Shown: positions 161 through 47,124, counted from the whole stretch's first letter. The stretch: DNA of 61,924 bases, filler included, from Bonamia ostreae (GCA_040357525.1; 25 parts of 25 records of this genome joined end to end with filler, not necessarily neighbours in it); one strand, 5' to 3'. Program-made: numbers and translations. The notes: a model not told the origin generated them from the letters alone.

Positions 161-750
161 CTTGCAGTTATAACAGCACAAATTTTCTTTGAAATGGAGA
201 GCTTAAATATTCTGCATTTGTTGTCACTGATGTACACATTCCCAATTTGGTTATTTCCAAATAAAAACGAAAAAAATTTTCAAATTGAAAAATTTGCAAT
301 TTAACAACAAAAGGATAATTTTATCGTTATCGCTTTCATTTTTCCCATTTGTCGGGGAAAACTACGGATGCACTCACCACGCTTTGAGAGAACCAGTAGT
401 TTGGTTCACCGCTTTATTCTCTGCCATTTTTTGCTGCTTACCGCGACTTTTACTAAACTTGTTTAAAATTTTCACAAAAGTTTCAGAAGATATAACAGAC
501 CAAGTCATCTTGACATCGCGATAGAAATCGACGATATTGACGCTGTTTTTTAATGTCAAATAAAAAGGAAAAAATAGACTTGGAATCAAGCGAATTGACG
601 ATCAACCAAAACATAACAGATTTCGAGATGCAAATTACGAAAAAAGATAAAACGAAAGGTTATGACGATTATTACAGAAATTCGGAAAAAAATTCGTGGC
701 GAGATTTTGTAAAATCGCGTTTGCTGGAACCGATTGTTAAAGTCAATTAG
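161..750 (+). CDS. P4-type ATPase (phospholipid flippase), C-terminal exons, partial
   Basis: Removing introns 250-313, 461-480 and 545-567 gives LAVITAQIFFEMESLNILHLLSL..WIIL..LREPVVWFTAL..CCLPRLLLNFFRRYNRPSHLDIAIE, the pattern of the last P4-ATPase TM helices; stop at 750. Confidence 0.7.
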
Positions 751-908
751 ATTTTTTAGACGCAAATTCAAAATATTTTTCAACGAAAAAAATTTAAACA
801 AAACCAAAAACAGACATTTTTGAAAAAAATTTAAATATACCAAAAACCTTAAAACATTTTTGTACATAAAAACAAAATCACGAAACCCGAAAACTGAAGA
901 AGCTGAAA

Positions 909-2403
909 ATGACAGAGATTAATTTAAAATCAAAAAATGCTTTAAAAAACACGAAGCGTTGTCAAAACGTTATCGGAACCGCCAAAAAAGCAAAAATCGT
1001 CGACATCCTCAAATCGAAAAACATTTTTCACAATGAAGACAAAAAATTACTAAACGCGAAATTCAAATTCGCTGAAAAATGTCATTGTTTTCCAATGTCC
1101 CCTCAAAATCCGCTAATCCGCATTCTGTTTAAATGTGGTTTTAGAGAAAATTTTTCGACCGAACCACAAAAAAAGACGGAAAATTTTTTATCCACGCCAA
1201 AAAATTTTTTATCCGCGCCTAAAAATTTTTTATCTGCGCCTAAAAATCTTAGCACCGAAAAACAAACAAATTTTGACGATATTAGTGATCCCAACAACTT
1301 TAGCGACGACATGAAACAACGAATAATAGGACTATTCGAAGAAAAAAGCACTCTCAGTCGAACTGAAATTGTTGATCGTTACGCCACAAAACACAAAAAA
1401 CCGCTTTTCTTCGATGATCTAAATCGTTTTTTGAGGAGAATGGAGAACATCGAAGGCGTTGTGGCGTCTCACAACAAACGCTATTTCACTCTGCTCGACC
1501 GATTCAATGTGCTCGTCGCTGACGAGAGAATAGGCCCAGACGGACGCGGGTCCATCGGCACTTTCGTCGAAAAGAGTTTTCCTCTAATTTTGAGATTTTG
1601 CGCAAATTGGCGAAAACGCAAATTTGACCAATCCGGAAACAGCCAAAAAGGAGTTTTATCGGAAAATCACCGGACGCAAATCCCATTTTTGTCCCAATCG
1701 CCGCGAATTCAAAGAATCGCGAGCGTTTGTGATTCCGAGAAGTTGCACTTGGAACAATCTGGAACGCATTCCGGAAGTATTTTTTGACGGAATCGACGTG
1801 CGACTTTTGAAAGAAACGGCTTTTGACGAAGAAGGTTCGCTGTTCCTTCAGCGATTCGTCGCGCAAGCGAACAAACGCGAGTTTTCGCGTGTTCTGGGGG
1901 CGTTGCTGCGCCATTTCTGCGCGTTGGCTCGCACTGCGAACGGGAGCAAACTGTGTAGGAAACTGTTTCAGTTGGCGGACGAGCACCAAATGAGCACCGT
2001 CGTTGCCAAAGTGGCGCCGATTCTGGTTGCTTTGAGTTGCGATCGCTTTGCGTCGAAAGTTGTCCAGACGATGGTTTGCAGTGTTTTGGGTCGGAAGAAC
2101 GTTATTTTGTTTATGTTTGTAAAAGAAAGAGGATTTGGTGCAAGCTCTGAAAGTCGCGGAGAACCTGTTGTTTTTGGTTCAGAATCCAGACGGGATTTTT
2201 GTGTTGTTTGCGATAATGGACGAGTTTTCTGCGGATTTGACGATGTTTTTGGTGGAAATGGGCGTGGCTTATTTTTGCCCGTTGTCGAAGTCGAGGGCCG
2301 GAGTCCGCTTTTTGAGCCGTTGTCTAAAGATCACGGAGGGAGCGGATTCGAGCGGCCATAAGAGTGTCCAGCGTCGTTCTCTTATCGAAAAAGTAACCTT
2401 TGT
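909..2403 (+). CDS. Pumilio/PUF-like repeat protein, partial
   Basis: Three ORFs join via introns 1576-1594 (19 nt) and 2101-2125 (25 nt). LSCDRFASKVVQTM and AFDEEGSLFLQRF resemble Puf repeats. Confidence 0.6.
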
Positions 2404-2502
2404 NNNNNNNNNNNNNNNNNNNNNNNNNNNNNNNNNNNNNNNNNNNNTTAATTAATTAANNNNNNNNNNNNNNNNNNNNNNNNNNNNNNNNNNNNNNNNN
2501 NN
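2404..2502. other. Artificial contig spacer (first of 24)
   Basis: N-run + TTAATTAATTAA (stops in all frames) + N-run recurs every ~2.5 kb; contig lengths fall steadily from ~2403 to ~2359. Confidence 0.98.
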
Positions 2503-3857
2503 NGAAAGTTTCTATCCGATCATTTTTTGGAGAGAAAACAAAAAACACTAAATATAATTTTTCAAAATAAGGTCAAGTTTTGTCTAAAAACGCGATATGT
2601 TTATTATTAAACAAAAAGCATTTAGTTTATTGTTTAGACAATGCTCGATTTTATAAAATTGTCTTTGCCAACTCAAACGACAGATCTCGGCCGATGTCTA
2701 AAATCGGTCGAATATTCGACCGGTGCAAAACGCTTTTTTCTGTCGCTGTTTATATTTAACTTTTTCTCAGTTTTCTGAAGACGAACTCCTTAAAAATTTT
2801 TTTATTAAACGGGTACCATTTTACGCCATTTTTTGAATACACAAAATCTAATCTTAAAATCGGGGAAATTAAAGCTGTCTCTATAGAAAAAGCGGAACTT
2901 AAATATTTTTTGATTTTCGTTAATTTTGTCGATTCTAATTCGATTAAATGTGTTTTGATTCGCGACATCGTTTTCATTTTTAATCATAAGAACGGTAAAC
3001 TCGTTCCGAACAATATCGAAGATTTTATGTTTCATTTCTAACCGCAAATTTTGCAGAATCGAAGATAAACAAAGATTTATTTCTACTTTCGAAATAACAA
3101 AAAAATCATTGTTCGCAGCATTTAAAGACAAAAGCTTAATTAGATACGATTTTGACGTAAACCGCTTAAATTCGATAACAATAAAAGGTTTTAAAGCGAC
3201 AATTTTTTCGCCAAATTTTAAATTTAGAAAAAATGGTTCTGATAAACGCGACGAGAAATTTTCGAAAACAGACAAAGCAGAGATTCGTAACTTTTTTAAA
3301 ATCGGATCTCAAAACCGATTTGCTGTTCGCAGTCAATTCGGACAACAATTTTTACGTTTTTGACCAAAAGGCAAAATATCCGTTTTCTTTGATGGCGACT
3401 AAGCCAGTTTTCGGCCGAAGCCACAAAAAACAATTGGATTCTTTGATCGAAAACAATTTCAAACTTTGTTTGACCAAATCTGCTCAGAATTTCGACCATT
3501 ATTCGCTAATTATTTTTTCAAAATTTCGACACAAAAACTTTTATTCTTCTCATCTCGTTTTTATTTATAAACCAAATTTCAAATTAAAAACAAATTAAAA
3601 CTCAAAAAAATAAATTTGATAAAATAATTAAATTTCATAACAAAAAAACAAATTTAATTACAAAAAAACAAATTAAAACTCAAAAAAATAAACGAAACGC
3701 CAAAAAGATAACAATCTTCGATCTGAAAATCACAGAAAACAACAATAACGGAACACCGAAAAAGAAAATATTTTTAAAACGAACAACAGAAAAAAATCTC
3801 GAAAACGATTTTTACGCAATCAAATCAATCAAATTCACCGAAAAACAAATTTTTGTT

Positions 3858-45372: not shown

Positions 45373-45969
45373 ATGTCAATAATTAACTGCAAGAAATCGA
45401 AAAACTGTTTCTCTCAGAAAGAATTGATAGAAAGCGAAAAGCGGTATGTATCTCTTCTCAGCGATACCACAAAAATCTTGTCAAAATGCTTTAACGACAA
45501 AAAAATTTTAATTGTCATCAAACAAATTTTATCTTTTCACAACAAAATCTTGTCCGAATTGCAATTTTTCGATTGTAACGGCGATTGCTGTTATTTTTCC
45601 AAAATTTCGTCCATATTTCTTAGCGAAAAACAAAATTTTAAAGTTTTTATAAAAACTTCAGTTGCTTTATAGAAGATATGGCTTTGTTTATGCCCATTTA
45701 ATAAAAAATAGAAAATCTCTAAATTCGGGTAAACTTGGCTCATTGCTGATTTTGCCAATTCAGAGAATGTTTATTAAAAAAAATAAAGCTGTAAATATGC
45801 GCAATTTTTTTCGATATTTGTTACTTGTAAATGCAATGAAGATAAAAAAGCCATTAAAGTTTTATTTTTGCAATAAAAGTGTCTTGCAGTTTTTCAGAGT
45901 ATTTTGGAGGAATTGAATGAAAAAATGAAAAAAATTATGTTGTTTCAGAGAATTTTGTGTTGTTTGTAA
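45373..45969 (+). CDS. RhoGEF (Dbl-homology domain) protein; start uncertain
   Basis: ELIESEKRYVSLL, ILSFHNKILSEL, LGSLLILPIQRI|CKY; introns 45643-45661 and 45769-45788. Confidence 0.8.
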
Positions 45970-46032
45970 TCATAAACTCTTTTAATTTTGTAAATAGCAT
46001 TTAAATTGCGATAAAAAAAAATGGTGAAAAGT

Positions 46033-46846
46033 TTAATTGTAGCCGTAATATACATCGCCATTTCTTAAATTTAGAATATTATCAATTTCCTCTTTTTGCA
46101 ATTTCGACATGTTCGATTTGTAGACTCTGCTTGAAACGAAATTTAGACCAGTGCGCGGATCAGTATATTTTGACTTAAAATAAAAATGTTTACTGGTAAT
46201 CCAGTGATGTCACAGTACTTTTTGTTGGGATAAATCGGTTTTGCAGATTTTATTCCGTTTTCTTTATTTTTAGAGATTTAATTTTTGAACGTTTTTTTGT
46301 AAAATTTGGTAACTAAATTTTACGACAAAGATTAAAATTTGAAATCGAGGAAATCTGATTAAAGACAAAAATTTGCAATAATTTTAAAATTTGTTTAAAC
46401 ATAAACCAGAAAAATAGTCATTCGATTCGTCGAAAGTTTTACGAAATTTTTCCAAATTAAATTTTTTCGGTTGTTCTTTATTCGATCTGTTTTTCTTGTA
46501 ACGGCGATAAAGCCCATCTCCGCACCCTTTTTTCTGTAATTTTAGACAATTAGAAACATTTGACAGTTTGTATTTTTTAATTGCTTTTCTAATGATTTTA
46601 GAAAAGTCTTCAACGCATTCGTTTTGTTTAGATTTTTCGCCTTTTTCTTTATTGACGAACAGATCTTTTGGAGCACTCAAAGTTAAACTTAAAATTTTTT
46701 AGAACAACTTTAAATCCGGAAAAACAATTTTTTTAAATTTGTCGTTTTTTAGAACCTTTTAAAATTTAGAAAAAAACAGCCAATTTTCCGTTATAAAAAT
46801 GATTTTTTATTTTAGAATTTTTGTGATCGATTTTAGTTTTAGCCAT
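46033..46846 (-). CDS. IES6: INO80 complex subunit C / IES6 (YL1_C domain)
   Basis: PIYPTKKYCDITGLP|SKYTDPRTGLNF..ILNLRNG; 20-nt intron 46174-46193. Confidence 0.8.
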
Positions 46847-46922
46847 TTTCAAATTTACTAATTTTATTTTTAACAATTTAAAAATTATAATTTATTGCGA
46901 CCAATAATAATATTTAGACAAA

Positions 46923-47124
46923 ATGGTACAAGGAGCAAGTGCTGGATACGACCGCCATATAACTATTTTTAGTCCGGACGGACGGCTTTACCAAATCGGT
47001 TTTTGAATTTTAATATATAAAACAAAAAGAATATGCGCTTAAAGCCGCAAAAAGTTCTGGTTTAACGTCTATTGCGGTAAGAGGAAAAGATTGTGTCGTA
47101 ATGGTGACGCAGAAAAAAGTTCCG
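46923..47124 (+). CDS. PSMA6: 20S proteasome subunit alpha type-6, first two exons
   Basis: [57 protein letters not shown]; intron 46999-47029. Confidence 0.95.

Follow-up and report, generated by a model that had tools for sequence, protein, structure and literature searches.

Introns of a few tens of nucleotides or fewer are known from several groups of eukaryotes, among them the mikrocytids Mikrocytos mackini and Paramikrocytos canceri, which share with Bonamia ostreae both a class (Ascetosporea) and extremely short introns. According to the text of the report on mikrocytids, their introns are all 16 or 17 nt long (224 were predicted in M. mackini) and depend on a conserved intron sequence, and the spliceosome is reduced (PMC10245619). 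For Ascetosporea as a whole, part of another account describes drastically reduced intron numbers and sizes (PMC13746701). Tiny introns have also been published for dicyemids and myxozoans (PMC13644364; PMC6543705, PMC6736024, PMC2222250); the sections on dicyemids and myxobolid myxozoans (PMC13644364; PMC6543705; PMC2222250) describe parasites with a median intron length of 22–27 nt, reduced splice motifs, and a weakly conserved A upstream of the AG that replaces the polypyrimidine tract. The GT-AG introns of Paramecium, Stentor, and chlorarachniophyte nucleomorphs lie within 15–35 nt and occupy narrow ranges of 15–16, 18–21, and 20–35 nt, as quoted in two of these papers (PMC10245619, PMC2222250). 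For B. ostreae itself, a parasite of flat oysters, the text of the genome paper gives an assembly size of 12.24 Mb, an N50 of 1417 bp, and on average two introns per mRNA (PMC11069148). The introns considered here lie in a window of 61,924 nt of B. ostreae DNA (GCA_040357525.1), the whole stretch that was analysed, which is AT-rich (~31% GC) and broken by pairs of 44-N mask blocks spaced ~2.5 kb apart.

An initial annotation of this window had proposed 20 introns of 19–31 nt with predominantly GTTT donors and AAG acceptors. All 20 segments were found where they had been placed, each bounded by GT and AG (14 on the + strand and six on the − strand), and removal of each unites open reading frames. 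The donor tally was exact (14 GTTT, three GTTA, three GTAA, and no GTRAG), as was that of the acceptors (12 AAG and one GAG, the remaining seven being YAG). A second, unselected set was derived without the claimed list and consists of eight introns implied by the protein P0109, seven introns placed by homology in other genes, and one donor at 47125, giving 16 donors and 15 complete introns. The segments are very probably genuine nuclear spliceosomal introns of B. ostreae (Haplosporida, Ascetosporea, Rhizaria), and they have a lineage-specific donor consensus, G-T-T-(T/A)-W-W.

These introns share with canonical U2-type GT-AG introns their GT and AG termini, an occasional GC-AG form, removal at the RNA level, positions consistent with homology, and the occurrence of any phase and of all length classes modulo 3. 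The GTRAGT donor, YAG acceptor, polypyrimidine tract, and YTRAY motif of canonical introns are, in contrast, missing or replaced. Because of their pairing with U1 and U6, a donor purine at +3 and a G at +5 belong to the most strongly conserved intron features in eukaryotes, and donors in Paramecium, Stentor, and chlorarachniophyte nucleomorphs carry A at +3; the B. ostreae introns differ from the latter in their GTT donors and broad range of lengths. They differ from the uniform mikrocytid introns, compared through the text of that report only, in having lengths of 19–206 nt, with at least 36 introns in 62 kb. Dicyemid and myxobolid donors are given as 'GTa' in the sections cited above and the hosts of those introns are animals, whereas T occupies +3 in 83% of the donors of this rhizarian protist. 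No description of a GTT donor consensus was found in the literature searched, the figures and supplements of which may hold sequence logos.

The GTT donor consensus

The window contains 5379 GT sites, among which GTT and GTTT occur at frequencies of 0.431 and 0.209, respectively. Relative to these sites the claimed donors are enriched for both GTT (17/20; p=1.5e-4) and GTTT (14/20; p=3e-6). The 16 unselected donors include 13 GTT (p=0.002), nine of them GTTT (p=0.002), together with two GTA and one GC, and none has G at +5. The same bias is present in donors found without the claimed list, so the GTT(T) signal is genuine and did not arise through selection. In the pooled set GTT begins 30 of 36 donors (p=8e-7), G at +5 is present in three, and GTRAG in none. 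The +3 base is T in 30 donors, A in six, and never G or C (p=2e-5 compared with the A/T make-up of intron interiors), and the +4 base is T in 23, A in 11, C in two, and never G. GT opens 35 donors and GC one, AG closes every one of the 35 complete introns, and in each case these termini are on the coding strand. No hexamer among the 36 donors resembles the U12-type ATATCC or GTATCC.

The AAG enrichment of the acceptors is weaker than the GTT bias of the donors. With an expected frequency of 0.406, the claimed set alone is not significantly enriched (12/20; p=0.06); AAG ends ten of the 15 complete unselected introns and 22 of the 35 pooled introns (p=0.0065), with YAG in 12. The bias is limited to positions +1 to ~+6 and −4 to −1. 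A polypyrimidine tract is missing, as had been noted initially for most of the claimed introns, the 5′ half being T-rich (0.51) and the 3′ half A-rich (0.48), and the reported lack of a branch consensus was borne out by the presence of YTRAY in seven of 24 tiny introns compared with 4.8 expected by shuffling (p=0.19). A hairpin between the terminal T-run and A-run was considered and rejected: pairing between the two arms of one intron is no better than between arms taken from different introns (p=0.13 for tiny, 0.35 for all, and 0.70 for long introns).

The introns differ from their surroundings in composition throughout. All 20 claimed segments form AT islands, the GC content being 0.166 in their interiors and 0.378 in 60 nt of sequence on either side (Wilcoxon p=1.9e-6), and in all 35 complete introns, the interiors of which are 80% A+T, GC is lower than in the flanks (~17–18% versus ~38%).

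None of the claimed lengths (19–31 nt) is divisible by three, and the unselected introns range from 22 to 206 nt and fall into all three residue classes modulo 3. Lengths of at most 31 nt account for just four of the 15 unselected introns; the remainder measure 48–206 nt and bear the same signals, and the proposal that introns are defined by length fails on this point. Because the same GTT..(A)AG signals bound introns of 19–206 nt, those of 19–31 nt are one size class and not a separate kind. Tiny frame-shifting introns are the ones visible by eye, so the claimed list is biased towards them, and both its 19–31 nt range and its lack of lengths divisible by three are detection biases. Definition by composition, also suggested initially, is compatible with the data, if unproven, and the strong contrast between introns and exons might contribute to recognition.

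Support for individual introns

Contigs were mapped to one stretch of 2364 bases (44798–47161) that holds four of the claimed introns. Run X1, which is RNA-like and only guessed to be RNA, gave 26 contigs over a few exon-sized patches, with cover limited to exons; runs X2 and X3 gave no contigs mapped to this stretch. In the proteasome alpha subunit gene, three X1 contigs match the genome up to 46998 and then carry the 11 letters located immediately after 47029, and cover is back at 47031. The contigs jump from 46998 to 47030, and the 31-nt intron 46999–47029 (+; GTTTTT..AAAAAG) is therefore skipped exactly as claimed; in addition, positions 1–17 of the Proteasome_A_N profile finish at the exon end. 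There was no cover at the other three claimed junctions. These are 45643–45661 (19 nt, +; GTTTTT..TTCAG) in a RhoGEF-like gene, with a single GT..AG solution and a weak RhoGEF match on the upstream exon; 45769–45788 (20 nt, +; GTTTAT..TAAAG), also with a single solution and with no family match; and 46174–46193, described below. An unclaimed GTTACA donor (47125–47161, +) opens an intron that enters the N mask, and here an X1 contig departs from the genome at 47125 and continues for 17 further letters.

One other X1 contig, with a depth of ~13700, fits 50 bases at 44803–44852 (+) and continues with 102 letters; it could represent an alternatively used exon, a paralogous copy, or a junction with sequence from another location. 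The loose ends at 47125 (17 letters) and 44852 (102 letters) were both sought and are absent from the unmasked window.

The eight introns of the ABC-transporter gene follow from P0109, which is listed at NCBI as 'ATP-binding cassette permease mdl1, partial [Bonamia ostreae]' and comprises 544 residues encoded by a contig of 2362 nt from a different assembly. It maps to 49881–52038 (−) in nine letter-exact blocks, and the ABC-transporter exon at 49839–50162 (−) matches it at 98% identity. The mapping assigns the window to B. ostreae, with which the small fraction of the window's words present in an RNA run labelled as mollusc metagenome agrees. An origin in a dicyemid or myxozoan, first suggested by the tiny introns, the immunoglobulin I-set match, and the mollusc-metagenome run, was abandoned on the strength of P0109. 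Exactly one GT-AG cut is available at each of the eight junctions, and none of them shows an indel relative to eight ABC homologues. All eight introns lie on the − strand. Two map with one solution each, 51893–51914 (22 nt; GTTTTT..GTCAG) and 50159–50180 (22 nt; GTTTAA..AAAAG). At the others the GT-AG cut is the sole one among five equivalent cuts (51578–51736; 159 nt; GTTTCT..AAAAG), among three (51255–51281; 27 nt; GTTTCA..CATAG), or among two (51124–51146; 23 nt; GTTTTT..TGTAG; 50927–51039; 113 nt; GTTATT..AAAAG; 50654–50729; 76 nt; GTTTTT..ATAAG; and 50345–50428; 84 nt; GTTTAT..AAAAG). Across the last of these the Walker A region is continuous with that of the homologues. A metagenome scan with P0109 returned only distant ABC relatives at 20–40% identity.

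The seven homology-derived introns lie on the + strand of five further genes. Three are in an AFG1-like ATPase gene, where no GT-AG solution unites the exons around 10961–11046 (86 nt; GCAAAT..TTTAG); with the GC-AG cut the glycine-rich loop of Walker A is regained, and the next exon begins at AFG1 profile position 70. Intron 11227–11288 (62 nt; GTTAAT..GCAAAG) has a single GT-AG solution and separates exons matching profile positions 70–124 and 124–234, and 11594–11684 (91 nt; GTAAAT..TAAAG) has two solutions with a common donor, of which the 91-nt cut is favoured over a 16-nt cut by the restart of the profile at residue 27 of the downstream frame. In the nucleoside diphosphate kinase (NDK) gene, 25650–25740 (91 nt; GTTTTA..AAAAAG) has two GT/GC..AG solutions, the alternative deleting conserved residues, and the exon that follows begins at position ~15–17 of the NDK profile. 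The RPB1 intron 22774–22860 (87 nt; GTTCTC..TAAAG) has a length divisible by three and contains an in-frame stop, and a 29-residue gap in three RPB1 homologues falls exactly over it. In the DHX8/PRP22 gene, the exons flanking 16796–17001 (206 nt; GTACAT..TTTAG) end at residue 93 and begin at residue 94, respectively, of the human DHX8 chain 6hys_A. Intron 9406–9453 (48 nt; GTTTTT..TTAAG) in the dehydrodolichyl diphosphate synthase gene is the only in-frame GT/GC..AG solution within an insertion that splits the Prenyltransf match; it is in frame and free of stops, and ORF callers that work in the prokaryotic manner therefore continue through it without a break. If retained, it would add 16 residues.

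Most of the claimed removals had been said to restore conserved motifs, and this holds for about nine of the 20, which is short of 'most'; junction support is exact for three, partial for about six more, and contradictory for none. Besides 46999–47029, the exact cases are 42715–42734 (20 nt, +; GTTTTA..TCAAAG) in the Pcc1 gene and 46174–46193 (20 nt, −; GTAAAC..TTAAG) in a gene with a YL1_C domain. In the former the Pcc1 profile reaches position 44 one residue short of the exon end and position 47 is the first residue past the split codon, and in the latter YL1_C position 8 is the last upstream residue and position 10 the second downstream residue.

Partial support comes from several genes. 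The second Pcc1 intron, 42564–42585 (22 nt, +; GTTTGG..TAAAG), has a single solution, and its downstream exon begins at Pcc1 profile position 3. Two claimed introns lie in the NDK gene: 25594–25619 (26 nt, +; GTAATT..TTAAG) has a single GT..AG solution and exons too short for a profile test, and 25967–25992 (26 nt, +; GTTTTT..ACAAAG) has three solutions and flanking exons that correspond to NDK profile positions 15–87 and 103–132, the ~11-position gap at the junction perhaps reflecting an internal deletion. For 19333–19361 (29 nt, +; GTTTTT..AAAAG; two solutions) in an inositol polyphosphate kinase gene the acceptor is supported, as the human IPMK alignment starts at the first residue of the 3′ exon, which also has a Pfam IPK match; the upstream exon has no match among solved structures. 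Intron 2101–2125 (25 nt, +; GTTATT..AAAAG) in a PUF-repeat gene has 32 GT..AG solutions. Downstream of it the claimed frame matches 44 of 149 PUF homologues at E<0.1 and the read-through frame matches none at E<1, so the frame change is shown, with the exact junction inferred. Intron 461–480 (20 nt, +; GTTTAA..AAAAG) is plausible, with a donor common to all five GT..AG solutions and a weak P4-ATPase C-terminal match on the upstream exon (E=0.002, below the cut-off).

A representative search with the PUF exon 1990–2358 (+) returned only P0120, an unspliced genomic ORF call with 100% identity that is uninformative on splicing. This public protein runs through intron 2101–2125 into the wrong frame and is an example of mis-annotation.

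Three further claimed introns are probable. They are 1576–1594 (19 nt, +; GTTTTC..TTGAG) in the PUF-repeat gene, an AT island that unites open stretches of 705 and 762 nt and has seven solutions; 13494–13516 (23 nt, −; GTAACA..ATTAG), which unites open stretches of 606 and 576 nt and has six solutions; and 14544–14566 (23 nt, −; GTTAAA..AATAG) in a TYW1-like gene, with a Wyosine_form domain on the upstream exon and four solutions. Five others are plausible. The DnaJ gene contains two of these, 6825–6844 (20 nt, −; GTTTGA..CGCAG), proposed from ORF joining with 12 solutions and flanks that match no family, and 6922–6943 (22 nt, −; GTTTGA..TTTAG), with a DnaJ domain on the upstream exon and eight solutions; longer relatives of the DnaJ exon were sought and none turned up. 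The remaining three have no family match, namely 545–567 (23 nt, +; GTTTTT..AAAAG), with a single GT..AG solution, and 26404–26423 (20 nt, +; GTTTTT..TTTAG) and 34599–34623 (25 nt, +; GTTAAT..AAAAG), with donors common to all four and all three solutions, respectively. The weakest of the 20 is 31216–31235 (20 nt, −; GTTTTC..GGCAG), which joins ORFs, has eight solutions, and has no family match. A Pfam scan of 14 exon pieces flanking claimed introns gave no match at E≤1 for ten, weak unrelated matches for three, and the weak P4-ATPase match for one (231–458). Introns whose flanks match no family are predictions from frame joining and composition.

A single GT..AG cut is possible for five of the 20 claimed introns and the donor is forced in three more, which means that some of the claimed junctions were picked by eye; GTT is the donor in seven of the eight that are fixed by frames. 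Two automated approaches were tried and set aside. A codon-usage Viterbi decoder limited only by GT..AG recovered just 5–7 of the 20 claimed introns, being too weak because GC content differs between genes, and blind ORF-joining scans were too noisy (805 + strand matches; 86 + strand ORF pairs; 195 candidates, of which 47% are GTT).

Alternative explanations and recognition of the donor

Several points weigh against reading the segments as real introns with a donor consensus of their own. The genome paper, in the part of its text that deals with introns, ascribes 'canonical introns' to B. ostreae (PMC11069148). Proof at the RNA level exists for one of the claimed introns and for one additional donor, the mapped stretch having no cover at its three other claimed introns, and P0109 is a predicted protein, so that its junctions partly mirror gene-finder training. 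Alternative GT..AG cuts with a different donor exist for 12 of the 20 claimed junctions, and all 36 donors sampled come from one window of 62 kb. The six donors with A at +3 and the one GC donor make GTT a strong bias and not a rule.

The alternative cuts, the modest GTT fraction among the 195 blind candidates, and the poor recovery by the decoder are what would be seen if the initial reader had picked GTTT..AAG stretches that unite chance open frames in AT-rich DNA. Such an artefact of choice is nevertheless very improbable: the 16 donors obtained from RNA contigs, an annotated protein, and homology show the same bias, every junction tested at exact resolution held, and all 20 claimed segments are AT islands. 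It is more improbable still that the segments are removed at the DNA level, as are the internal eliminated sequences of ciliates, or are assembly errors. Contigs that lack the 31-nt segment cannot by themselves separate splicing from DNA deletion, given that X1 is only guessed to be RNA, but the assembled DNA contains the segments and the exon-only contigs jump over them, with contig cover that halts at both intron borders. Moreover, 35 of the 36 segments have GT..AG on the coding strand and are not TA-bounded, and the 2362-nt contig that encodes P0109 leaves room for the same introns.

The evidence shows precise removal from RNA at GT..AG borders, with a U-rich donor and an A-rich acceptor. 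The canonical U1 5′ end is ACUUACCU, with which a GUUUWW donor pairs at little beyond the GU, so that choice of the 5′ splice site would seem to depend on recognition of U at +3/+4 in some other way. The donor may be read by an snRNA in which the U1 5′ end and/or the U6 ACAGAGA region has changed to compensate, and this is tentatively suggested; canonical U1 might, with somewhat lower probability, be aided by U-rich-binding proteins and by the contrast in composition between exons and introns; and donor recognition independent of U1, as suspected for mikrocytids, is conceivable but unlikely. GUUUWW could accordingly be a different 5′ splice-site code in Bonamia, and perhaps in haplosporidians generally, recognized by a U1 5′ end or a U6 that has co-evolved with it, or with no involvement of U1; Bonamia would then represent a living stage between the usual splicing of rhizarians and the mikrocytid system, which lacks U1 and has introns of fixed length. 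This is put forward tentatively, at rather less than an even chance. The absence of detectable U1 from the related mikrocytids makes a remodelled spliceosome in Bonamia plausible. A scan of the window against Rfam, both with the gathering score and with E≤1, found no match, snRNAs included. The window does contain a piece of a PRP22/DHX8 gene, and at least part of an ordinary spliceosome therefore exists.

The spliceosome may instead be unchanged, with canonical U1 and U6 reading only GU, AT mutation pressure and lost constraint in a reduced parasite genome accounting for introns that begin T-rich and end A-rich, and the contrast in composition helping to pick sites. The 80% A+T of the interiors, far poorer in GC than the exons, and the function of donors with A at +3 (6/36) agree with this, as do the retention of U2 and U2AF in myxobolids with reduced 5′ and 3′ signals (PMC13644364) and the description of B. 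ostreae introns as canonical in the text of PMC11069148. Composition, however, predicts similar numbers of T and A at +3, where 30 T and six A were seen, and with no G or C at +3 and only two C and no G at +4 the donor behaves as a positive signal and not a decayed one; an unchanged spliceosome is rather unlikely. Recognition of the 5′ splice site without U1, with Bonamia on the way to 16–17 nt introns, is also unlikely, and slightly more so. In its favour, only U2, U4, and U6 snRNAs and 17–19 spliceosomal proteins were detected in Mikrocytos and Paramikrocytos, according to the text of PMC10245619, and loss of splicing genes started early in Ascetosporea by the account in PMC11069148, and the donor consensus hardly pairs with canonical U1. 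That early loss is assigned in the same passages to the branch of paramyxids and mikrocytids and not to haplosporidians (PMC11069148), the 19–206 nt introns of Bonamia contrast with the fixed length of mikrocytid introns, and the PRP22/DHX8 piece is present.

The GTT-donor introns of Bonamia are real, unusual for splicing, and in part foreshadowed by studies of relatives. Donors with U at +3 in five of six cases, hardly any G at +5, and precise removal amount to a natural experiment on minimal snRNA pairing, and kinship to the mikrocytids, the spliceosome of which is among the most reduced known, could reveal the order of the steps of reduction. Gene finders that use a default minimum intron length and GTRAGT models will mis-annotate this oyster pathogen, and public protein collections already include ORF calls of its genes made in the prokaryotic style.

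Gene pieces and other features of the window

Conserved genes are present only as pieces at 22542–23780, 15839–17301, 10189–10446, and 231–750 (all +). RPB1 is present only from approximately residue 1290 to its end, and DHX8 stops past the motif II exon, where there is a probable GTTTAT donor at 17188; a later exon was sought and none was found. A P4-ATPase C-terminal tail (the weak match above) lies at the start of the window, and an STT3-like C-terminus was recognized among the pieces by reading of the sequence only. The pieces could reflect scaffold chimerism, gene fragmentation, or pseudogenes.

A tRNA scan of the window found nothing. Five runs of 10 N (48083–48092, 48630–48639, 53073–53082, 54060–54069, and 58953–58962) are unlike the 44-N masks and are probably scaffold gaps of the assembly. 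Positions 1–160, ahead of the first gene piece, consist of tandem copies of a T-rich unit of ~30 nt. An immunoglobulin I-set domain (47570–48055, +; E=1.2e-9) is encoded between the proteasome and ABC genes of this rhizarian parasite.

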